From contig PMZT01000065.1 of assembly GCA_003170085.1 (NCBI GenBank), forward strand, positions 3,272 through 26,470: 23,199 nucleotides of DNA, in the 5' to 3' direction. Below, piece by piece: positions 2,441-19,229 of the stretch. The stretch comes from Planctomycetia bacterium. GTDB taxonomy: Bacteria; Planctomycetota; Phycisphaerae; FEN-1346. The notes under the pieces were generated by a model that saw only the letters and a program-made list of their open reading frames with translations, ran no database searches and had not been told where the DNA came from. A program made the position numbers and the translations under genes. How positions within the stretch are numbered: position 1 is the first letter of the stretch; each line of letters begins with the position of its first letter.

Positions 2441-3049
2441 TCAACCTTCAACCTTCTCAACCTCAACCGTGTTGGCATCGAGGAGCCGCTTCACCACGAC
2501 GGGCGTGCCGGCCGCAAGGGCCTCGTCCGACACCGACCGGGCGTTCACGAACGAGATCACGCCGCTGACCATCGTGCGAACCTGGCCTGTGCCGCCTTTC
2601 GGAATATCCATGTACACCGTGGCTCGCTGACCCACGCAGGTCTCGAGCCGCCGGGTGCCCGTCTCGGCCATGCGCATGAGGAAGTAAAAGAGGGCCGAAA
2701 CGATCGCCATGCCCACGCAGCCCCAAAGGACGCTGTAGATGAGCGTCCGGTCGACCGAGGTGCCGGCCCGCGTATACAGGATGCCGGCCCATCCGAACAA
2801 CAGGCCGAAGGCGGTAACCGATCGCACCGAAAGAAGCTTGAAGCTGGCCATCGAATCGGCGCCGTGGACCGTCGATTCCTGGACATCGTGGCCGCCCGCG
2901 GGGCCGACATCGTGAACGTCGGTGCCGCCGGTATCGACGTGCTCCGCGCCGCCGAAGCCGCCGAGGAGCGTCGACAGGAGCTGCCACCCGAACAGGACGC
3001 TGAAGAAGACCGCCGCAATCCAGTACGCATCGACAAGGATACCTTCCAC
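2441..3049 (-). CDS. NfeD-like membrane protein (YuaF/YqiJ-type, flotillin-associated)
   Basis: 202 aa. N-terminal TM helices, then a C-terminal OB-fold-like segment (GQRATVYMDIPKGGTGQVRTMVSGVISFVNARS...GTPVVVKRLLDANTVEV). It ends 18 nt before the flotillin start. The gene order matches the classical nfeD-floT operon. Confidence 0.75.
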   Translation of the reverse strand: MEGILVDAYWIAAVFFSVLFGWQLLSTLLGGFGGAEHVDTGGTDVHDVGPAGGHDVQESTVHGADSMASFKLLSVRSVTAFGLLFGWAGILYTRAGTSVDRTLIYSVLWGCVGMAIVSALFYFLMRMAETGTRRLETCVGQRATVYMDIPKGGTGQVRTMVSGVISFVNARSVSDEALAAGTPVVVKRLLDANTVEVEKVEG

Positions 3050-3184
3050 GGCTCACCTCCTTTCGCGTCCAGAGACCGCGCCGCCAGCAGCAAGTATGCT
3101 AATCGGTACGGCCGCCGATGCAAGGCATTTCCGCGGGCGCACGGGGCGATTCCAAAGAACGCGCGAAATTGGAGGCCGGGGAAA

Positions 3185-3413
3185 GACGACAACAGATTCA
3201 CCGCAGAGACCGCTGAGAACGCAGAGAACAAAAGAAACGACTAACTGATTGAGGGGAAAAAGAAGAGGCCACGGCCTCCTCCCCTGCTCACCTGTTCAAT
3301 CTGTTCTGTCTGTTTTTCCGTTTCTCACCAATTTTCCCGTCGTTGTTGTCTTTCTCTGCGTTCTCTGCATCTCTGCGGTGAATCCGTTTCCGTTTTTCTC
3401 CGCGGTGAAATCT
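3185..3413. repeat. Composite repeat element, copy A. A ~57-bp arm (gacgacaacagATTCACCGCAGAGaccgctGAGAACGCAGAGAAcaaaagaaacgac) lies about 100 bp from its inverted copy (gtcgttgttgtcTTTCTCTGCGTTCTCtgcatCTCTGCGGTGAATc), then an inverted gatttcaccgcggag module. The shared core is cctgttcaatctgttc.
   Basis: Read directly. 3196-3229 is the reverse complement of 3352-3385 with few mismatches. The same sequence family recurs at 4956-5303. Confidence 0.7.
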
Positions 3414-3441
3414 TGAACGCGCCCGACGAAACGGCTAGCAT
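3413..3441 (+). promoter_or_regulatory. Candidate sigma70-like promoter for the fucosidase gene (TTGAAC, 17-nt spacer, TAGCAT)
   Basis: -35-like TTGAAC at 3413-3418 and -10-like TAGCAT at 3436-3441, about 45 nt upstream of the ATG at 3484. An AAGGGA Shine-Dalgarno lies at 3474-3479. Confidence 0.3.
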
Positions 3442-3483
3442 CGGGGCTACGCCAAACGCGCGTGAGATTACGAAAGGGAACCC

Positions 3484-4935
3484 ATGCGATCACCTCCGCT
3501 AACGACGGTTCTGGCCGTTCTACTTCTTCTCGGACTTGCGGCGCTTGCCACGGCCGCCGCACCCGCCACGGAGCCGCCCATGCCCGCCCAGCCGCCCGTT
3601 CCCACGCCGCAGCAGGTCGCGTGGCAGGAGATGGAGTTCATCGCGTTCACGCACTTCGGCGTCAACACCTTTACGAACCGCGAGTGGGGTGAAGGCAAGG
3701 AGAACCCCAAAATCTTCAACCCCACGGCCTTCGACGCCCGCCAGTGGGCCCGCGCGTGCAAGGACGCCGGCATCCGCATGATCATCCTCACGTGCAAGCA
3801 TCACGATGGCTTTTGCCTGTGGCCGAGCCGGTACACCGAGCACTCGGTCAAGAACTCGCCGTGGAAGGACGGCCGGGGCGACGTCGTCAAGGAAGTCTCC
3901 GACGCCTGCCGCGAGGCCGGCCTGAAGTTCGGCGTGTACCTCTCGCCCTGGGACCGCCACGAGCCCACTTACGGCGACTCGCCGAAGTACAACGAGCATT
4001 TCGTCAACCAACTGACCGAACTCCTGACGAACTACGGCGAGATCACCGAGGTCTGGTTCGACGGGGCCTGCGGCGAGGGCCCGAACGGCAAGAAGCAGCA
4101 ATACGACTGGCCGGCGTTCCACGCGACGGTCCGCAAGTTGCAGCCGAAGGCCGTGATCTTCTCCGACGCCGGCCCCGACGTGCGGTGGATCGGCAACGAG
4201 AACGGCTACGCGGGCGAGACCTGCTGGTCGATGATGGACCGCTCGCGCGTGGCGATCGGCAAGGCCGATGGGAAGTACCTGAACCGCGGCGACCCCGCCG
4301 GCCCCGACTGGGTGCCGGGCGAGTGCGACGTCTCGATCCGCCCCGGCTGGTTCTACCACGCCGACCAGGACGCGAAGGTGAAGCCGCTGGCCGACCTCGT
4401 GAACATCTACTTTGCGTCGGTCGGGCGAAACGGACTCCTGCTGCTGAACCTGCCGCCCGACCAGCGCGGCCTGATCCATGAGAACGATGCGGCGCGGTTG
4501 CGCGAGCTGCGGAAGTTCCTCGACGAGACGTTCCGCACGAACCTCGCGCAAGGCAAGCCCGCCAAGGCCGCCGCCGAGGCGCCCGGCCATGCGGCTGCAA
4601 TGGCAGTCGATGGCGACGGCGCCACGTGGTGGGCGGCGCCAGCCGGAACCACCAGCGCCACGATCGAACTGGACCTGGGCGGGCCCGCGCGGTTCAACGT
4701 GGTCATGGTCGAGGAGATGATCTCGCTCGGGCAGCGGATCGAGGAGTTCGCCGTCGAACGCTGGGACGACGGCAAGTGGCTGCCCGTGTGCCAGGGGACG
4801 ACCATCGGCCACAAGCGGCTCCTGCGATTCCCCGAGGTCACGGCCGGGAAGGTGCGCCTCGTGATCACGAAGTCGCGTGGCACGCCCACGGTGCGCGAGT
4901 TCGGGCTGTTCCTTGCGCCGGCGGTGGCGAAGTAG
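3484..4935 (+). CDS. Secreted alpha-L-fucosidase (GH29) with a C-terminal F5/8 type C (discoidin-like) carbohydrate-binding domain
   Basis: 483 aa. Signal peptide (MRSPPLTTVLAVLLLLGLAALATAAAP). GH29-type core (FIAFTHFGVNTF..REWG, ..ILTCKHHDGFCLWPS.., ..FGVYLSPWDR.., EVWFDGA). The C-terminal ~130 aa (AMAVDGDGATWW...FNVVMVEE...VRLVITKS) look like a discoidin/F5-8C domain. Confidence 0.85.
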   Translation: MRSPPLTTVLAVLLLLGLAALATAAAPATEPPMPAQPPVPTPQQVAWQEMEFIAFTHFGVNTFTNREWGEGKENPKIFNPTAFDARQWARACKDAGIRMIILTCKHHDGFCLWPSRYTEHSVKNSPWKDGRGDVVKEVSDACREAGLKFGVYLSPWDRHEPTYGDSPKYNEHFVNQLTELLTNYGEITEVWFDGACGEGPNGKKQQYDWPAFHATVRKLQPKAVIFSDAGPDVRWIGNENGYAGETCWSMMDRSRVAIGKADGKYLNRGDPAGPDWVPGECDVSIRPGWFYHADQDAKVKPLADLVNIYFASVGRNGLLLLNLPPDQRGLIHENDAARLRELRKFLDETFRTNLAQGKPAKAAAEAPGHAAAMAVDGDGATWWAAPAGTTSATIELDLGGPARFNVVMVEEMISLGQRIEEFAVERWDDGKWLPVCQGTTIGHKRLLRFPEVTAGKVRLVITKSRGTPTVREFGLFLAPAVAK

Positions 4936-4955
4936 TTGGGGGCTTTGCGCCGTTC

Positions 4956-5303
4956 GATTTCACCGCGAACGCAAAGAAAAACGGCAACGGATTCACCGCA
5001 GAGATGCAGAGAACGCAGAGAAAAACAGAAACGGCCTACGGATTGAGTTAAAAACAGAAAAAAGGATTTCACCGCGGAGAACGCAAAGAAAAACGGCAAC
5101 AGATTCACCGCAGAGGCCGCTGAGAACGCAGAGAAAAACAGAAACGGCCTACGGATTGAGTTAAGAACAAAAGAGGCAAACGGCAGGCGAATAACGGCGG
5201 CACCTGCTCGCCTGTTCAATCTGTTCAGTCCTTTTTTCTGTTTTTCCCCAGCCTGTAAGTCGTTGCCGTTTTTCTCTGCGTTCTCCGCGTCTCTGCGGTG
5301 AAT
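4956..5303. repeat. Composite repeat element, copy B. Two tandem ~110-bp direct units (4956-5055 and 5066-5170: gatttcaccgcgRAacgcaaagaaaaacggcaacRgATTCACCGCAGAG..GAGAACGCAGAGAAaaacagaaacggcctacggattgagttaa). Then a small hairpin, the cctgttcaatctgttc core, and an inverted partial unit (5258-5303).
   Basis: Read directly. The units are about 90% identical to each other and to the arms of copy A (3185-3413). Orientation and order of the sub-modules match copy A. Copies A and B bracket the GH29 gene. Confidence 0.75.
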
Positions 5304-5310
5304 GTTTTTG

Positions 5311-6642
5311 TTATGGTTTAGCGGCGCTCAACTGCGTTGAAACCGCGAACTCGCCGGCGCGGCCAACCTCAAACGTCGCGCGGGCGCCGGACGATTCCAC
5401 GGCGTACGCGCCAAGGAACCCGTGAAACTTCACCTGCCCGCGCTCATCGGTCTTGAGCGCGAGCGGCCCCGTCCACCACTCCGTCTTGACCATCTTCAGG
5501 AGGGCGTCGTACACGGGCTTCGGCGACATGTCCTTGCGCACGAGGCCCGAGGGGGCGCCCAGCCACGCCCCGGCGTCGGAGAAGTCCCACCACGTGATCG
5601 CCTGCACCGCGGGATGAGAGAAAAGGATGCGGTAGAACTCGGCCACCTGCGCGGCCTGCCGCTTCTCGCCCTCGGGGGTCGTGACCCAATCGGTGTAGTG
5701 GCCATTGTTCCAGTCCATGTGCTGCTTCTCCTCGCCCGAGACGAACGTGGTCTCGGTGAAGTGAAGGGGCTTGCCGAACTTGGCGAACCGCTCGCACGCC
5801 TCCCACGTCCACCTCGCGCCCCGATACCCGTTGTGCTGGTGCGACTGGATACCGATGACGTCGATCGTGACGCCGGCGGCGAGGCATTCCCTGATGAGCG
5901 CCTCGTACTTCGGCGACGTGTCGTAGTCGTTCAGGACGAGCGTGGCGCGGGGGTTGGCGGTCCGCGCCGCCGCGAAGGTTTCCTTGATGAGTTCGGGGGC
6001 ACCGATCTTCTTACATAGCTGCGCGATCGGGTTCTTGTCGAGTTGGTACGTCGGCATGACCACGGCCTCGTTGACGACGTCCCACGTATCGATGAGGCCG
6101 GCGAACCCTTTCACCTCGCGCGTGATCCGCCCGATCTGCAGCGCCTGGACCTCCTCGGGCGTCTTGCCGGCGAGCCATGACGGCGGCACCTGGTGCCAGC
6201 AGAGCGGGTGGCCCTTGGTGCGGATGCCGCTAGCGGCGCACCACTCGGCCATCGCGCGCCGGCCGTCGGCGGCAGGTTGCCCCTCCTGCCTCTCGTACGC
6301 GCCCCAGTAGAACGGCAGCGTGGCGAAGTTCAGGAGCGCCTTGAACCGGTCCCGGTAAGCCGTCTGGGCCGGACCTTCTCGACTCGCGCTCAGGCCGAAC
6401 GCGTTGCACCCGAAAAGGAACTGGTGACGGGTCTGCTGCACGGTGACCGCTGCGCCGGCGAGCGGCCGGCCGCCCGCGTCGGTGACGGTCAGGGTGACCT
6501 CGGCCGTCCGATACTTCTGGATGCGGGCGTTCATTTCCTCAAGGCCGACGGGCGCCGCGGGGCTTTCGGCCGGGGCCTGTGCGGCCGCGGCCATGAGGAC
6601 TACGCTGACGATCGCGAGGGTGATTCCATGCCTTCCGGTCAT
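5311..6642 (-). CDS. Secreted GH10-family glycoside hydrolase (endo-1,4-beta-xylanase-like)
   Basis: 443 aa. Signal peptide (MTGRHGITLAIVSVVLMAAAAQA). GH10 hallmarks: HQFLFGCNAF near the N-terminus, the catalytic acid/base region WDVVNEA, and the nucleophile region HFTETTF (ITELD-equivalent). AAGGAG-like Shine-Dalgarno upstream of the ATG at 6642. Confidence 0.8.
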   Translation of the reverse strand: MTGRHGITLAIVSVVLMAAAAQAPAESPAAPVGLEEMNARIQKYRTAEVTLTVTDAGGRPLAGAAVTVQQTRHQFLFGCNAFGLSASREGPAQTAYRDRFKALLNFATLPFYWGAYERQEGQPAADGRRAMAEWCAASGIRTKGHPLCWHQVPPSWLAGKTPEEVQALQIGRITREVKGFAGLIDTWDVVNEAVVMPTYQLDKNPIAQLCKKIGAPELIKETFAAARTANPRATLVLNDYDTSPKYEALIRECLAAGVTIDVIGIQSHQHNGYRGARWTWEACERFAKFGKPLHFTETTFVSGEEKQHMDWNNGHYTDWVTTPEGEKRQAAQVAEFYRILFSHPAVQAITWWDFSDAGAWLGAPSGLVRKDMSPKPVYDALLKMVKTEWWTGPLALKTDERGQVKFHGFLGAYAVESSGARATFEVGRAGEFAVSTQLSAAKP

Positions 6643-10842: not shown

Positions 10843-12729
10843 ATGCCCCGTTCACACAGCATGCCCACGCAACGGCGGCCCGCCGCGGCGGGCAGGCTGT
10901 GGGCATGCCACCCGGCCCTTAGAAATGGGCTGGCCCTTCTCGCCACGGCGGCGCTGGTCCTGGCCCTTGCCACGGCGGCGCACGCCGGCCCCGCGCCCGA
11001 GAAGGACGCCAAGGCCCCGGCGGAAAAGGCCAAGGCCGCCGCGCCAGCCCCCGCGCCGCCTCCGCAGTTCGTGTCGGAGCCCGAGGGTTTCGCACGGCCG
11101 CATATCTCTTCGTCAACAGAGCTCAACGTGAGCATCATCAAGGTCGTCCTGTGCGTCCTGTTCGCCGGGGTCGTCTTCCACGTGACCCACTGGACGTTCC
11201 TCGACGTGCGGGCGGTGAACACGAAGGAAGTCCTCTGGGAGAGCGTGGTCCTGGGCAGCGGGGTGGCCGGCCTTGCCGCCGCGATCCTGGTGCCGATGTT
11301 CTACGTCGGCCTGCCGCTGGGCATCCTCCTGTTCGGCGGCGGCGCCGTGGCTTACGCCATGCACCGCAACGGCCTCGTCGACCCGCCTTTCCACGTGCTG
11401 ACGGCCGAGCATTTCGGACGGATCAAGCGCCGCCTGTTCCGGCAGAGGGAAGACGTGGAATCGGAAGGCCCGGTCCTCGGCACCGGCCACGACGTCATCT
11501 TCATGGGTCTCGACGACATCCCGATTCGCCTTGAAGGCACCGCCAAGCACGAGCGCGAGGCCAACCGCGAGATCGAGCGGTTTTTCTACCAGGCGATCAC
11601 CCGCGGCGCCACGATGATCGGGTATCTGGCGCGGCCGCAGAAGGGCGAGGTCCGGTTCAGAGTCGCCGGTGAGATCGCTCCCGGCGGCGATATCGACCCG
11701 CCCGCCTCGGAGTTCGTTGCCGCCTCCCTCAAGCGCCTGGCCGGCCTTGACCCCAGCGAGGTCCGCAAGCCGCAGGAAGGACGCTGCCGGGCCGTCGTCG
11801 AGGCCAAGACCTACGAGCTGCGCGTCAAGGCGGCCGGCACGGTCAAGGGCGAGCAGGTGGCGATCCGCATCATCGACCTGGCGGCCAGCCAGATGCGCCT
11901 CGACCAACTCGGCCTGGGCGAGACCCAGATCGTGGGGCTCCAGGAAGGGCTGGCGGCGAAGCCCGGCCTGGTCATCCTCTCGGGCCCGAAGGACTCGGGC
12001 TTGACCACGACGCTTCACGCATGCCTGAGGAACTATGACCGTTACTCGAACAACATCATCGCCTTCGAACCGCACATCGACGTTGAAGTCGAGAACGTGA
12101 ACCACGTGGTCGTGAGCCAGGAGGACGGGCCGATTGCGGCGGCCGAAGTGCAAAAGCACACGCGGCTGGAGCCCGACGTCGTGTCGTTCGACGCCCTCTC
12201 GCTGAGCGAGATCGCCCAGGTCCTGGCCGAAGCCGCCCAGGAGCACACGGTGCTGGTGGGCCTCCGCGCCGCCGACACGATGCAGGCGATCGTCCGCATG
12301 AGCGAGCTTCTGGGCTCGACCGAGCCGCTGGCGGCGCGGCTCCAGGTCGTTCTCAACCAGCGGCTGGTCCGGCTGCTCTGCCCCCAGTGCAAGGAGGCGT
12401 ACCGGCCGAATCCGGAGTTCCTCCGCAAGTCGAACCTCACGAGCCACCAGGTCGACGTGCTGTATCGTCCGCCGACCAAGACCGACGAGGGCGCCGCCCC
12501 GTGTCCGCAGTGCCACGACGACCGGTTCATCGGCCGGACGGCCATCTTCGAACTGATGCCGATCGACCAGACCGCCCGCGACATGATCGGCAGCGGCGAC
12601 AACCTTAACGAACTGAGAACCTATGGCCGCAAGGCGGGAATGCTGAACCTCCAGGAAGAGGGGCTGCGGCTGGTCCTCGCCGGGCGCACCAGCATCGACG
12701 AAGTGCTGCGGGCGATCAAGGCAACGTAG
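10843..12729 (+). CDS. Membrane-anchored GspE/PilB-family (type II secretion / type IV pilus assembly ATPase fold) protein with degenerate ATPase motifs: a predicted pseudo-ATPase
   Basis: Preferred start ATG at 10843 (alternative 10861). The long ORF-track start at 10126 overlaps pilT and is unsupported. N-terminus: signal-like segment (LALLATAALVLALATAAHA), a Pro/Ala/Lys-rich linker, then about 3 TM helices. The cytoplasmic part aligns with GspE/PilB N2 and ATPase domains (EVRFRVAGEI.., AIRIIDL). The C-terminal tetracysteine is conserved (CPQC..x..CPQC). Walker A reads GPKDSGLT instead of GPTGSGKT (Lys lost). The Walker B region reads EPDVVSFDALS (no DxxxxGEIRD Glu). The His box reads GLRA instead of TLHT. 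Confidence 0.7.
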   Translation: MPRSHSMPTQRRPAAAGRLWACHPALRNGLALLATAALVLALATAAHAGPAPEKDAKAPAEKAKAAAPAPAPPPQFVSEPEGFARPHISSSTELNVSIIKVVLCVLFAGVVFHVTHWTFLDVRAVNTKEVLWESVVLGSGVAGLAAAILVPMFYVGLPLGILLFGGGAVAYAMHRNGLVDPPFHVLTAEHFGRIKRRLFRQREDVESEGPVLGTGHDVIFMGLDDIPIRLEGTAKHEREANREIERFFYQAITRGATMIGYLARPQKGEVRFRVAGEIAPGGDIDPPASEFVAASLKRLAGLDPSEVRKPQEGRCRAVVEAKTYELRVKAAGTVKGEQVAIRIIDLAASQMRLDQLGLGETQIVGLQEGLAAKPGLVILSGPKDSGLTTTLHACLRNYDRYSNNIIAFEPHIDVEVENVNHVVVSQEDGPIAAAEVQKHTRLEPDVVSFDALSLSEIAQVLAEAAQEHTVLVGLRAADTMQAIVRMSELLGSTEPLAARLQVVLNQRLVRLLCPQCKEAYRPNPEFLRKSNLTSHQVDVLYRPPTKTDEGAAPCPQCHDDRFIGRTAIFELMPIDQTARDMIGSGDNLNELRTYGRKAGMLNLQEEGLRLVLAGRTSIDEVLRAIKAT

Positions 12730-15881: not shown

Positions 15882-17216
15882 ATGGCCGAAGCCACAAACC
15901 GGTATCTCGATATCTGTCAGCACTGCGTTACCAAGGCCGTGCGCCTCGGGGCCGAGTGGTGCGACGTCTCGGCCGGGGCGGCGCGCGACATCTCGGTCAC
16001 CATCGAAAAGACCGGCATCAAGACCGCCGACGCCGGCCAGGGCGAGGACGTGGCCATCCGCGCCTTCGTCCGCGGCGGCATGGGCTTTGCCGTCGTCAGC
16101 GGCAGCAACCGCCGCGATATCAATAACGCCGTCGAACGGGCCGTGGCGCTGGCCAAGGAGGCCACGCCCGATCCGGACTTCAAGGCCCTGCCCAAGCCGC
16201 AGCCGGCCGCGGAGGTCAAGGGCCTTTTCGACGAGCGCATCGCCGGCATGAGCGTTGACCAGGTCGTGCGCATCGCCGTGGCCAACCTCGAACTGGCCAA
16301 GTCGATGGAGCCGCTCGTCAACCTCTCGGGCCACGTGGGCCTGACCGTAGGCGAGGGCGCCCTGGCCTCCTCCGCAGGCGTCGCCCTGGTGGCGCGCGGC
16401 ACGGAGATCGACGCCGACATCGAGGCCCTGCTGAAGCGCGGCAGCGACTCCGGCTACTTCTACGATTTCGACTTCGGCCGCAACCTCGACGACGTCCAAC
16501 TCGAAACCGTGGCCGCAAGCGCCGTGACCGGCGCGAATCGGTTCCTGGGCGCGCGGCGGATCAAGTCGCGGCGGATGTCGCTCATCCTCGGGCCGCTGGC
16601 CTCGTACGGTTTCCTGGGGAGCATCGTCGGGGCCGCGAGCGCCGAGGCGATCCAGCGCGGCCGCAGTTGGCTGTGCGGCAAGGTGGACGAGCGCATCGCC
16701 AGCCGCCACCTGACGATCGTCGATAACGGCCTCATCCCGCGCGGCGCACGCAGCGGCGCCCACGATGGCGAGGGCACGCGGCGGCGGCCGCTCACGGTCA
16801 TCGAAAACGGCCGACTCGTCAACCTCCTTCACAACTCCTACACCGCGGGCAAGGCGTGTACCAAGAGCACCGGCCACGGCACGCACTCCGGCAGCATCAG
16901 CCCGACGAACCTGAGGCCGACCCTCGGCAAAAAGACCGCCGCGGCGATCCTGAAAGAGGTCAAGGAAGGCATTTACCTGGAGAGCGGCGAGATCCGGCCC
17001 GACTCGGCCAGCGGCGACATCTCGGCCAGCATCGACTTCGGGTTCTACGTGAAGCGCGGCCAGATCGTCCACCCGGTGGAGAGCGCGATGCTGGGCGGCA
17101 ACATCTTCGACCTCCTGAAACGCCTCGACGCCGTCTCGTGCGACGCCCGCGAAGAGCCCGGCATCCTCATGCCCACGATTCGCATCCAGGACGTGCAGAT
17201 TGCGGGAACGGAATAG
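15882..17216 (+). CDS. pmbA: TldD/PmbA-family protein, PmbA/TldE-type partner subunit (no HExxH)
   Basis: 444 aa. Family-typical Gly-rich segments (GEGALASSAGVA, HNSYTAGKA..GHG, GGNIFDLL). Lacks the zinc motif, as expected for the TldE partner. Immediately downstream of tldD. Confidence 0.8.
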   Translation: MAEATNRYLDICQHCVTKAVRLGAEWCDVSAGAARDISVTIEKTGIKTADAGQGEDVAIRAFVRGGMGFAVVSGSNRRDINNAVERAVALAKEATPDPDFKALPKPQPAAEVKGLFDERIAGMSVDQVVRIAVANLELAKSMEPLVNLSGHVGLTVGEGALASSAGVALVARGTEIDADIEALLKRGSDSGYFYDFDFGRNLDDVQLETVAASAVTGANRFLGARRIKSRRMSLILGPLASYGFLGSIVGAASAEAIQRGRSWLCGKVDERIASRHLTIVDNGLIPRGARSGAHDGEGTRRRPLTVIENGRLVNLLHNSYTAGKACTKSTGHGTHSGSISPTNLRPTLGKKTAAAILKEVKEGIYLESGEIRPDSASGDISASIDFGFYVKRGQIVHPVESAMLGGNIFDLLKRLDAVSCDAREEPGILMPTIRIQDVQIAGTE

Positions 17217-17263
17217 GGCGATTCGGACGCGGGTGAAGACTCGCCGTGCGATGCAAACCGTTC

Positions 17264-17872
17264 TTAGACGGTATTCGCGTACTCTTCACTTTCGAACAGG
17301 CTGGCATGCTCGCCCACACCCACCTCCTTGTCATGCAGGTGTCGAACATCGACAACCGCCCCGAAGCGTATGAATGTCTTCTCGAAGCGTTCGTAGTCCG
17401 CACCCCAGTAGATCATGGCGCATGACATTGGCGCCCCCTTGCCGCCATCCTTGCCATCCACAAGAAAACGAAGGCGTGTATCATATAGAAATGCTACGGC
17501 CGTGGCAGCACCAAACACGAATTGCTTCCAGTGTCGCGTGTTCGTCGCGACAGGGACGAGAGCAAGAACCTCGGCGCCATGCTTGGCGTGCGCCTCGGCA
17601 CACCTTCGCAGCCAGTCGCGAATCGTGGTGCCCCGTTCTCGATCGCTGCCGTAAGGCGGATTCACGTAGATTGTCGCGTAGTTCCATGATGCAGCCAAGC
17701 CGTCGGTTTCGGGAAGGCGATACTCGACTTCCGCCTTCACGATCGAATGGCGGTTGGAACAGGGATCGAGTGCGATTGATCCCGAGAAACACCTTCGAAC
17801 CGCATGCACATACTTTGGCGGGGTGCACCAGTTCTGACTCAGCGATTCCGCGTTGCTGCGCCCTGCTGTCAT
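17264..17872 (-). CDS. Phage-type DNA N6-adenine methyltransferase (Dam_N6_MT family, PF05869-like)
   Basis: Family hallmark WCTPPKYVHAVRRCF..ALDPCSN.., then the catalytic IYVNPPYG (NPPY). Start ATG at 17872 has a perfect TAGGAGGT Shine-Dalgarno 9 nt upstream. The in-frame upstream extension to 17971 lacks it. Local GC is about 53-55%, against about 68% for the window. Confidence 0.8.
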   Translation of the reverse strand: MTAGRSNAESLSQNWCTPPKYVHAVRRCFSGSIALDPCSNRHSIVKAEVEYRLPETDGLAASWNYATIYVNPPYGSDRERGTTIRDWLRRCAEAHAKHGAEVLALVPVATNTRHWKQFVFGAATAVAFLYDTRLRFLVDGKDGGKGAPMSCAMIYWGADYERFEKTFIRFGAVVDVRHLHDKEVGVGEHASLFESEEYANTV

Positions 17873-17886
17873 GAGTTCCGTACCTC

Positions 17887-19008
17887 CTACCAGTCCTTTG
17901 CGGCGAGCTTGCGCAAATCTGCTTGTAGATTCGTGAGGTTGCCCTGGCGAGGGGAGATCACGTTGAACCACGTCTCGACCTCGGCTTCATGGGTGCTGAA
18001 GTAGCTCCGAAGGGCCTCGTCGGCGTCGACGCTGACGCGCACCTTGGTAAACCTATTGGCGCCAGAAGTACCGGAGTAGCTCGCCAAGAACGCCTCCCGG
18101 GCGGGCGCCAACTCTGGTGAAGGGTTCAGCAACAATTTGTCAATGAATTGAGACAGTCCTGCATCCGTCAGGAAGAGGAGCCAGTCGTATGACTGAGCGA
18201 GCACGCGCATTTCCTTGTTTTGGTTCCCAGATGTGAACCAGTTGCCGTGGTTGCTGACCACGCCCACTGTGAGAATGAAGCCGCGCAGATCGGCGACCGG
18301 CGAGCAATCGATTACCTCTCGCAGCAGGTCTCCGTAAGAGCCCGTACGAAACGTGCCGTCGCGCCTTTCCATGACGCCTTGAAACTCCCCATTGCGCAAC
18401 CGAACCTTCTGGAGAGAAGAGACCGATCGCGCCACATAGGCTCCCTGCTTTGCCTTCTCAATTGTCTGTGGCCCCTTTCGCATACCTTCTTCAATACCCA
18501 CTCGCTTGCACTCGAATATGGCGAACGGATCTGTCAAGAGCTCGCATACGGCTAGCCGGCAACGAGAGTTGTCGAGTGCGTCAACGTTGGCCACCACCAG
18601 ACGATCCGCACTCTCGGCAATCACGCACGCATTACGCTTAACGCCGTGCTTGCTCAAAACCTGTGTTGACTTTACCGCCGCTTCGCGTAAGAAAGGCAAG
18701 TTTCGCTTGAGCTTCGCCACTGTGAGCGGGAGTGACAACGGGGCAATGTCAACCACATGCCGGGCGCGGATCGGGTGAAGCGAAAACTCAACGTTGTGAG
18801 CAATCGCACTGTTGGCGAACTCGGGAACTGATCGCTCGATCACGATGTGATCCCGCAGATCCCAGGCTCGCAGCGTATAAAAAGTGATGATCTCGACGAG
18901 CGTACCCAGAGCTCGGCCAGCAGCCTTCTTGCGATCTGCGGCATACTGGAAGACGGTGTCGGCCAGCGTCTTCTGGAGTGCGTCAACGGATTCAAAGGTC
19001 AATTGCAT
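17887..19008 (-). CDS. Uncharacterised 373-aa protein translationally coupled to the Dam-type methyltransferase; putative type II restriction endonuclease (possible PD-(D/E)xK: ..VANVD..x22..FECK)
   Basis: Its TAG stop lies inside the methyltransferase Shine-Dalgarno (..gacTGGTAGGAGGTacggaactcATG). Same strand and same low-GC island. A D...ExK candidate sits at VANVD / FECKRVG. No other recognisable motif. The nuclease assignment is inference. Confidence 0.4.
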   Translation of the reverse strand: MQLTFESVDALQKTLADTVFQYAADRKKAAGRALGTLVEIITFYTLRAWDLRDHIVIERSVPEFANSAIAHNVEFSLHPIRARHVVDIAPLSLPLTVAKLKRNLPFLREAAVKSTQVLSKHGVKRNACVIAESADRLVVANVDALDNSRCRLAVCELLTDPFAIFECKRVGIEEGMRKGPQTIEKAKQGAYVARSVSSLQKVRLRNGEFQGVMERRDGTFRTGSYGDLLREVIDCSPVADLRGFILTVGVVSNHGNWFTSGNQNKEMRVLAQSYDWLLFLTDAGLSQFIDKLLLNPSPELAPAREAFLASYSGTSGANRFTKVRVSVDADEALRSYFSTHEAEVETWFNVISPRQGNLTNLQADLRKLAAKDW

Positions 19009-19229
19009 GCTCCTGCGTTGTGCCGTTCATGCCGTCCAACAATGATTAGAAGAACCCGCATAAGATGCGAAACCTTTGTTTCCTGCCCGAAAAGCTCGCC
19101 GTTGATCCATCCGCCAAGGCTGCGATAACCCCTTAGCCTCATTACCCACAGTCTACGTTATGTTTATCATGGCGTCTTGCGCGAGTCAACATAGAAACCT
19201 CTGGCCGCCGACAACCGCCCGACAAACGC

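Follow-up and report, generated by a model that had tools for sequence, protein, structure and literature searches.

Two repeat blocks, designated element A (approximately positions 3153-3412) and element B (4956-5308), flank an alpha-L-fucosidase gene in the window, the 23,199-nucleotide stretch of Planctomycetia bacterium contig PMZT01000065.1 (assembly GCA_003170085.1) analyzed here. Both are probably gene-less, non-autonomous relatives of REPtron-like cassettes that carry a gene for a GxxExxY protein (PF13366, PD-(D/E)XK-like); as such they resemble REPINs, the hairpin-forming doublets of repetitive extragenic palindromic (REP) sequences, or miniature inverted-repeat transposable elements (MITEs). 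More tentatively, GxxExxY nucleases and their inverted arms of tandem heptamers may make up a previously undescribed REPtron-like system found across prokaryotes, in which a promoter-less gene carried in host operons would encode a protein that recognizes the heptamers and that generates or maintains gene-less hairpins in many bacterial phyla, some archaea, and some phages. The first-pass annotation of the window overlooked the tandem-heptamer build of the arms, the GxxExxY link, and the cross-phylum distribution.

The arm common to this family begins with TT(C/A/T)ACC, after which come three to four heptamers of the form C(G/A)C-N-(A/G)AG, mostly at 9 nt spacing. A full cassette consists of an arm, a promoter-less nuclease-type gene of about 125 codons, and an inverted arm, and sits immediately behind the stop codon of a host gene in the same orientation. 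The arms in the window have the end motif of cassette arms with at least three heptamers at 8-12 nt, and in both A and B the arms are inverted, in register, and able to pair, as they are in cassettes. Among loci collected through the arm, several arms abut an open reading frame (ORF) of about 125 amino acids that scores 1e-38 to 4e-44 against the profiles TIGR04256 ("GxxExxY protein") and PF13366 (PDDEXK_3). Locus L002 reads arm, 107 nt, gene, inverted arm, and other GxxExxY genes in these loci have arms of the same build with heptamers CACGGAT, CGCGGAT, or CACAGAG.

Ascertainment through DNA was avoided in a second set of 80 metagenome loci, which were selected solely by protein. For 56 of them, the 250 nt upstream of the gene and the 250 nt downstream are linked by an inverted repeat with a score of 30 or more; scores in shuffled controls reached 16-34, mostly 19-29. 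By eye, nearly all of these flanking repeats are tandem-heptamer arms, for example TTTCACCGCAGAGCACGCAGAGAGCGCAGAG, ACCACAGAGGTCACAGAGATCACAGAG, and TTCACCGCAAAGTCGCAAAGTGCGCAAAG. A generic arm regular expression, requiring three or more heptamers at 8-12 nt spacing, finds 4.28 arms per kb within 150 nt of a GxxExxY gene, compared to 0.26 per kb elsewhere in the same loci, an enrichment of about 16-fold, and finds no arm in shuffled versions of the full loci. The arrangement is strongly oriented, with purine-rich arm, gene, and pyrimidine-rich arm in 17 loci and the reverse order in one. It is also tight: the median gap between left arm and start codon is about 11 nt, and about 5 nt separate the stop from the right arm.

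In 51 of 59 loci the GxxExxY gene and its upstream neighbor are co-oriented (baseline for neighboring genes, about 63%), and the neighbor's end lies about 50-60 nt ahead of the GxxExxY start. In the RefSeq isolate Bacteroides finegoldii, the radA stop codon is followed by GTTCACC, the GxxExxY gene, GGTGAA, and then AAAAT-ATG of the next gene. In Sphingomonas parapaucimobilis NZ_CP155749.1 (L222, 1449-1914), a cassette with arms of the CGCGAAG type lies within the fab operon, where it separates fabD from the fabG ribosome-binding site. Because of these wedged examples, the cassette is to be viewed as compact, with essentially no space for a promoter of its own, and as embedded in host transcription units. 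(The Sphingomonas record, an 880-kb "plasmid," also has rpsF as well as fab genes, and looks like a chromid.) The protein family itself is very large, with at least 8000 candidates for PF13366/TIGR04256 at E < 1e-5, and most sequences in the GxxExxY protein alignment keep the D…E-x-K residues. We found no sequence relative of GxxExxY in the PDB. A survey that included PDDEXK_3 gave its function as unknown and described multiple transfers between Bacteria and Archaea (PMC3424549). Many GxxExxY proteins are encoded on very short contigs (500-1500 nt), which would be consistent with repeats that break short-read assemblies.

The heptamers are also matched to the protein they flank. Proteins flanked by arms of the same heptamer type average 60.4% identity, versus 55.8% for different types (permutation p < 0.0005), an agreement to which host relatedness or GC content may contribute. 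This bears on the proposal that the arms are binding-site arrays for a host DNA- or RNA-binding factor other than GxxExxY, nucleoid-associated or regulatory, repeatedly recruited to intergenic regions. Heptamers that recur at constant intervals of about 9 nt, with the spacers free to vary, do resemble a protein-recognition array, and solo arms occur 27-41 nt upstream of ordinary genes. In L034, for instance, two arms at 2338-2412 stand in opposite order, the inverted arm coming first and the other arm after a 17-nt spacer; each is 27-41 nt upstream of an ordinary ORF in divergent orientation, so that arms also occur as 5'-proximal solo units. Nevertheless, no candidate factor is known, GxxExxY is the sole recurrent neighbor (a search beside solo arms for other recurrent cargo found ordinary genes only), arms and enclosed protein diverge together, and near-identical sites in Archaea and Bacteroidota would be unexpected for a host regulon. 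We consider a host-factor array improbable. As a further observation on solo arms, one on the minus strand of L017 is followed after 21 nt by the start of an ORF that by eye looks like a small PD-(D/E)XK protein of YraN/UPF0102 type, possibly by coincidence.

Gene-less forms vastly outnumber gene-bearing ones in the loci collected through the arm. Left-right pairs dominate with 74, the remaining three orders giving 21, 21, and 8. The loop is shorter than 200 nt in about 67 of these 74 pairs, and a GxxExxY gene is present in only a few loops, which are about 425-490 nt long. One origin of gene-less forms can be read directly. In L016, two tandem hairpins align colinearly with an adjacent cassette in three pieces, namely the flank with TTCAC, a 23-nt internal fragment of the gene, and the gene-upstream region with the arm, with junction microhomology GCCC(T/C)GAC; by this alignment the gene-less hairpin is demonstrably an internal-deletion derivative of its neighbor. 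In L053, a GxxExxY pseudogene in which internal deletion has fused N-terminal and C-terminal fragments lies beside an arm. Near-identical gene-less copies, loop included, occur on three contigs of one metagenome-assembled genome. The window elements belong to a long composite subtype, with a short and a long arm per side, a gene-free loop, and, in B, a tandemly duplicated left arm pair. The composite of short plus long arms recurs in L028 and at two places in L073, where the first copy is about 65-70% identical over about 230-270 nt and has the same nesting of arms. It follows that the composite is inherited or propagated in its gene-less form.

Partner arms agree with each other in a manner that points to the heptamer as the conserved unit. 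Heptamer spacing has its maximum at 9 nt, module spacing is equal in 110 of 136 arm pairs, and the modules of one arm are identical in 45% of pairs, where 12% is expected. Module positions agree between partners in 92.7% of comparisons, versus 86.1% for shuffled partners (maximum 87.6%), while spacer positions agree in only 47.5%, versus 39.8%. In an alignment of 42 hairpins, 86.4% of cells are paired, against 83.7% in shuffles, pairs changed on both sides number 18 against 11.9, and the covariation score is 0.166 against 0.115; none of 500 shuffles reaches either the paired fraction or the covariation score. Four spacer columns are unpaired in 17-25 of the 42. What selection seems to maintain is thus the repeated heptamer, in register between the two arms, and not an uninterrupted helix; we infer that the arms serve as a recognition array.

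A competing explanation, which we regard as unlikely though more plausible than a host-factor array, is that these are host-functional RNA hairpins, that is, selected cis-acting structures such as terminators, 3'-end stabilizers, or RNase III stems, and that the GxxExxY link reflects only that gene's own regulation. The gene-less hairpins do lie mostly 2-35 nt after stop codons, and convergent gene pairs are over-represented around them (12 of 37, compared to 18% of all adjacent pairs); yet 21 of the 37 intergenic hairpins fall between tandem genes, where a terminator would be polar. RNA folding gives -103.3 kcal/mol for A (z = -7.1) and -154.4 kcal/mol for B (z = -8.0), far more stable than shuffles. 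The partner-specific covariation of modules likewise suits a selected RNA, as does the stable inheritance of a cassette in Algoriphagus (see below). On the other hand, the spacers are unpaired about half the time, a stem has no need of tandem heptamer repetition within its arm, and cassette arms lack the excess of G-U over A-C mismatches sought as a sign of pairing in the sense RNA (25 versus 32). Element B fills a convergent gap and its 3' end is followed by GTTTTTG, but a terminator scan found 5 sites where shuffles give 3.8 +/- 2.1, and flanks across the family are only moderately A/T-rich with no consistent T-run (U-tract in the RNA). Element A, located between divergent genes, could terminate neither. 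Rfam returned no match at gathering thresholds, and a permissive search of 3100-5400 returned only sub-threshold hits of 17-19 bits against thresholds of 45-64. In the reading that we prefer, because B fills the gap between the fucosidase gene and its convergent neighbor, it probably also acts as a transcript-end hairpin.

Under the reading we prefer, that A and B are gene-less relatives of GxxExxY cassettes, two independent elements would have landed, or been built, in two adjacent intergenic regions. The predicted GxxExxY nuclease would recognize the repeated heptamers, and, encoded elsewhere in the genome, would keep or propagate the hairpins in trans. The arms would be substrates for inversion, and A and B, once in place, would be mostly passengers.

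Several results weigh against this reading. No GxxExxY gene (TIGR04256 or PF13366) is found among the ORFs of the 23-kb window, nor is any GxxExxY remnant detectable in six-frame translations of A and B. Among 133 elements there is no consistent target-site duplication; 108 have no flanking direct repeat, and the rest have matches of 2-4 nt, slightly above the shuffled control. No pair of empty and filled sites was found either, so these data do not establish transposition. Plasmids seldom carry GxxExxY genes (7 in 72,556 records), and none was found in 50,697 cultured-phage records. The AlphaFold model of GxxExxY has a pLDDT of only 59.6, and a Foldseek comparison with the PDB gave no match at E <= 0.001. 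The context statistics given above come from crude longest-ORF gene calls and regular expressions. Finally, as judged from three species of Algoriphagus, cassettes can be passed on stably by vertical descent instead of being visibly mobile.

In Algoriphagus sp. A40, A. lacus, and A. sanaruensis (L218, L219, and L220, at about 4800-5480), the cassette occupies one locus, in the order DUF1456, cassette, radical SAM. Between A40 and A. sanaruensis, identity is 86% for the radical SAM protein and 74% for the GxxExxY protein. The inter-arm segment of A. lacus has an inverted orientation with respect to its flanks, and in A. sanaruensis there are three tandem arms per side. It is because of these three loci that we view cassettes as capable of vertical stability, and arms as able both to mediate inversion and to amplify in tandem. 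The 113-nt duplication in element B is another tandem amplification.

The wider distribution was surveyed with the pattern TTCACCGCAGAG-N3-6-GAGAACGCAGAG, which specifies 24 bases taken from a window arm. At least 120 stretches matched in a collection with one genome per species. By record title, the matches listed span about 15 bacterial phyla and three archaeal lineages, most of this taxonomy being labels on metagenome-assembled genomes. The bacterial labels are Acidobacteriota, Chloroflexota, Planctomycetota, Verrucomicrobiota, Bacteroidota, Gamma- and Betaproteobacteria, several "delta" lineages, Armatimonadota, Gemmatimonadota, Actinomycetes, Latescibacterota, Aminicenantes, Cloacimonadota, Nitrospinota, and Hydrogenedentota; the archaeal labels are Methanophagales, Thermoplasmata, and Methanobacteriota. 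Among the matches listed are contigs of 0.8-3 Mb, the named-strain record Ca. Viridilinea mediisalina, and two isolates, Algoriphagus sp. A40 and Zavarzinella formosa DSM 19928. Fourteen viral contigs from IMG/VR matched the pattern as well; in three of them (L124, L129, and L132) the arms are located among genuine phage genes, for Mu Gam-like, portal, head maturation protease, and neck proteins. Around the matches, conservation is limited to the arm, and the usual form is arm, variable loop, inverted arm. A scan based instead on the conserved center, CCTGTTCAATCTGTTC N40-52 TCTCTGCG, gave no matches in a metagenome collection that lacks the window's own contig, and a protein-database search with a spurious peptide from element B, aimed at further copies, likewise gave none. 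A literature search located no description of the repeat or its gene link, although subscription journals or database comments may hold one. In L105 (626-912), a Chloroflexi metagenome-assembled genome, six consecutive heptamer arms fill about 290 nt and a long spurious ORF runs across them.

The option raised in the first-pass annotation of a MITE-like or structured-RNA element family thus fits, in that the unit belongs to a very large family. The same matches bear on whether the repeats are a local duplication or assembly artefact with no wider meaning. The tandem duplication in B might invite that explanation. However, a separate record, the JGI metagenome contig Ga0334812_003050 (L121), is identical to the window over the stretches sampled and shows the same two elements in the intergenic regions, and the same arms occur in isolate genomes, megabase-scale contigs, and phage contigs. 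The family matches together with L121 refute an artefact, to which we assign next to no probability.

Within the window, the blocks lie where the first-pass annotation placed them, and they exceed chance expectation. A repeat finder run over 2800-5800 reported direct pairs 3283-3383/5203-5303 (101 nt, 81% identity) and 3181-3253/5088-5160 (73 nt, 88%), and inverted pairs 3341-3404/4970-5033 (64 nt, 91%), 4991-5062/5232-5303 (72 nt, 78%), and 3177-3209/3370-3402 (33 nt, 85%); arm identity between the blocks is 81-88%. With up to two mismatches allowed, the window contains 8 copies of TTCACCGCAGAG, where shuffles give 2.5 +/- 1.5, and all 7 copies with 0-1 mismatch are inside A or B. The 8 copies of GAGAACGCAGAGAA, where 0.19 is expected, all fall within the elements as well. 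Tandem Repeats Finder places a 113-nt unit, repeated 1.9 times with 91% matches, at 4956-5169, in agreement with the two tandem units of about 110 bp described earlier for B, and finds 9-nt repeats, CGCAGAGAA or TTCTCTGCG, in every window arm (3202-3229, 3352-3377, 4997-5022, 5109-5135, and 5272-5290). Other parts of the first-pass description required revision. The long hairpins do fold, with arms of about 75 nt rather than about 45 nt. The shared core, CTGTTCAAT, is itself a 9-nt repeat (2.6 copies, 3292-3314 in A), and each side of an element is built of a short and a long arm. The earlier judgment that no credible ORF overlaps the elements holds: the ORFs there are spurious read-throughs of the repeat, and the peptides sharing FTAEMQRTQRKT are spurious ORFs seeded by the hairpin repeats.

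The five long arms and the short arms of A and B can all be aligned to one another. A long arm reads GATTCACC, three heptamer modules (GCAGAG, CGCTGAG or TGCAGAG, CGCAGAG), and a purine-rich extension of about 40 nt; a short arm reads GATTTCACCGCGGAG(AACGCAAAG)AAAAACGGCAAC. Element A has the order degenerate short arm, long arm, center, inverted long arm, inverted short arm. Its left short-arm remnant (…AGAACGCGCGAAA…GGGGAAAGACGACAACA) at 3153-3194 aligns with the 3' part of the B short arms, and 3175-3190 pairs with 3385-3402 in the minimum-free-energy fold. The left long arm (3195-3268) starts with GATTCACC, has modules GCAGAG, CGCTGAG, and CGCAGAG followed by the purine-rich extension, and includes the 9-nt repeat CGCAGAGAA in 3.1 copies (3202-3229). 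The center (3269-3309) comprises a small GC hairpin (GAGGCCacgGCCTC) and the conserved CTGCTCaCCTGTTCAATCTGTTC. The right long arm (3310-3384), the reverse complement of the left, ends in CTCTGCGGTGAATC, and the right short arm (3385-3412, CGTTTCCGTTTTTCTCCGCGGTGAAATC) is the reverse complement of the B short arms. Element B has the order short arm plus long arm, twice, then center and inverted long arm. The first short arm (GATTTCACCGCGAACGCAAAGAAAAACGGCAACG) occupies 4956-4989, as delimited by the repeat finder, Tandem Repeats Finder, and arm alignment, and the first left long arm 4990-5064, which pairs with 5229-5303 in the minimum-free-energy fold. The second short arm (5065-5100, from Tandem Repeats Finder and arm alignment) and second left long arm (5101-5177) follow, the latter corresponding to the second 113-nt tandem unit. 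Next are the center (5178-5228), with a small hairpin CAGGCGA…TCGCCTG and the conserved CTGCTCgCCTGTTCAATCTGTTC, and the right long arm (5229-5308), which ends in CTCTGCGGTGAAT and is followed by GTTTTT. As read from the sequence, the center of A is common to B in CTGCTC(A/G)CCTGTTCAATCTGTTC, itself a 9-nt repeat, and apart from this segment the two centers are dissimilar.

The gene between the elements (3484-4935, plus strand) encodes a GH29 (glycoside hydrolase family 29) alpha-L-fucosidase with an F5/8 type C domain (PF01120, 3.9e-45; PF00754). Element A separates it from a divergent hypothetical gene (2441-3049, minus strand). Element B occupies the entire gap between its stop codon and that of a convergent GH10 gene (5311-6642, minus strand, stop codon 5311-5313), and ends 7 nt short of the GH10 stop. 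An exact database look-up found a 451-residue call for the fucosidase on record and not the 483-residue call. Directly after A, about 45 nt before the fucosidase start, 3413-3441 contains TTGAAC-17 nt-TAGCAT, a possible sigma-70-like promoter with 8 of 12 matches, which is under the scan threshold.

The first-pass annotation proposed that the repeats might mark insertion of the fucosidase gene or mobilize it, and advised comparison of the locus in relatives. On that comparison the gene is present and the elements are absent. Orthologs at 71-73% amino acid identity occur with conserved gene order in two related Planctomycetota contigs, L122 (Band_7, hypothetical, fucosidase … HisF, PilT) and L123 (fucosidase, GH10); L122, from a metagenome-assembled genome, has a PilT 67% identical to that of the window. 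The TTCACCGCAGAG element is missing from the orthologous intergenic regions of both, and the arm regular expression found no arms in 34.6 kb of syntenic L122 and L123 loci. Because these syntenic loci carry the gene without the elements, the fucosidase gene is, on this comparison, viewed as a resident host gene and not part of the elements, and A and B as lineage-specific additions. The elements are thus no evidence for mobility of the gene.

That A and B delimit a composite element with which the fucosidase gene arrived, or form a pair that drives its duplication or excision, might be suggested by two copies in direct orientation around a single gene, by a 38-nt perfect inverted match (A right arm versus B first left arm, the longest exact inverted match) that could in principle support inversion, and by the inversion between arms in A. 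lacus. Against it stand the same syntenic position of the gene in L122 and L123 without elements, a longest exact direct match between A and B of only 19 nt, the lack of any transposase, recombinase, integrase, or RAYT (REP-associated tyrosine transposase; HUH/Y1) gene in the window, and the scattering of family elements singly after unrelated genes. On the synteny and the 19-nt direct match we reject a composite transposon, and we judge a gene-mobilizing or gene-amplifying pair of any kind very improbable. Inversion of the fucosidase gene through the 38-nt match is conceivable; deletion or amplification, with 19 nt as the best direct match, would be unlikely.

The orthologous gaps have other repeats of their own. 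Hairpin repeats are located at 11480-11655 and 9790-9935 in L122 and at 10150-10330 in L123. TTTATTTAGCCCCSGGTGAATACACCSGGGGC occurs in three copies in L122 and in a partial copy in L123, and a long palindrome, CATTCTGAGG…CCTCAGAATG, is also present in fucosidase-flanking gaps of the related contigs; the same intergenic gaps are repeat-prone in each lineage. A GCGCG…GAAAGG…ATG segment, 5'-proximal to the fucosidase gene, is conserved in both contigs. The remaining window genes (Band_7, HisF, PilT/PilB-type ATPases, CvpA, two TldD/PmbA, L31, and Dxr) indicate ordinary chromosome. Region 17100-19200 has a low GC fraction, 0.53-0.59 against about 0.68 elsewhere, with two overlapping minus-strand ORFs, one for a Dam-like N6-adenine methyltransferase (17264-17971, PF05869) and one of 373 residues without a Pfam match (17887-19008), and may be a restriction-modification or mobile islet.

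For the orphan family PF13366/TIGR04256, the link to a motif array suggests a possible substrate that could be tested. The hairpins also matter for annotation: they are common in environmental phyla (about 0.26 arms per kb in cassette-carrying genomes) and seed spurious ORFs. Near-identical 24-nt arms are found in Bacteroidota, Planctomycetota, Chloroflexota, Acidobacteriota, Pseudomonadota, and methanogen-related archaea, and therefore imply that the arms either have spread widely by horizontal transfer or are under a shared constraint of unusual strength.

Among known systems, integron cassettes are compact promoter-less ORFs with an imperfect palindrome (attC) whose structure is conserved and whose sequence is variable. 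GxxExxY cassettes share the promoter-less ORF and imperfect palindrome. However, their gene lies inside the palindrome rather than beside it, their ends read TTCACC…GGTGAA, they lack RYYYAAC/GTTRRRY core sites, cassette arrays, and an integrase, and they occur singly in ordinary operons. The arm ends, as read, exclude attC sites. CRISPR is excluded as well, the modules being 7 nt with 2-nt spacers. Cyanobacterial STRR (short tandemly repeated repetitive) sequences are contiguous heptanucleotide intergenic repeats of other sequences in one lineage; they too are intergenic arrays of repeated heptamers, while in the present arms the heptamers are about 9 nt apart, number only 3-4, follow TTCACC, and form inverted pairs.

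A and B resemble MITEs in being short and gene-less with terminal inverted repeats, and the family does so in having at least one copy derived by internal deletion from a gene-bearing relative and multiple copies in one genome. Unlike MITEs, it shows no consistent target-site duplication, the product of the gene-bearing parent is an uncharacterized PD-(D/E)XK-like protein and no known transposase, and the cassette is promoter-less and stands in sense orientation in host operons. Intervening sequences of 23S rRNA with an S23p ORF, as in Coxiella, similarly place a small ORF in a hairpin of terminal inverted repeats, are inserted into a host transcript, and are regarded as selfish (PMC4990558). 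The cassettes differ in that they are not in rRNA, have a different ORF family, and are known here from sequence alone. To our knowledge, the inverted repeats of the rRNA intervening sequences are not tandem-heptamer arrays.

The closest analogues are the REP/REPIN-RAYT REPtrons and the TIR (terminal inverted repeat)/TIRYT "TIRtrons" (Di Nocera et al. 2013, PMC3733652). In all of these, a single small nuclease-type gene lies between inverted repeats, gene-less palindromes are more numerous, intergenic, and mostly just downstream of genes, the gene can be vertical at a fixed locus without target-site duplication, and arms occur single, paired, and clustered. The gene here is PD-(D/E)XK-like PF13366 and not an HUH/Y1 transposase, and its connection to the repeat is drawn from association of sequences only. 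A REP unit is 20-40 bp, itself an imperfect palindrome, with a GTAG or CGTC tag at one end (PMC3733652). The single arms described here are instead direct heptamer repeats, non-palindromic, with TTCACC/GGTGAA ends and no GTAG/CGTC tag, and rather than being specific to a species or genus they are near-identical over many phyla and Archaea.

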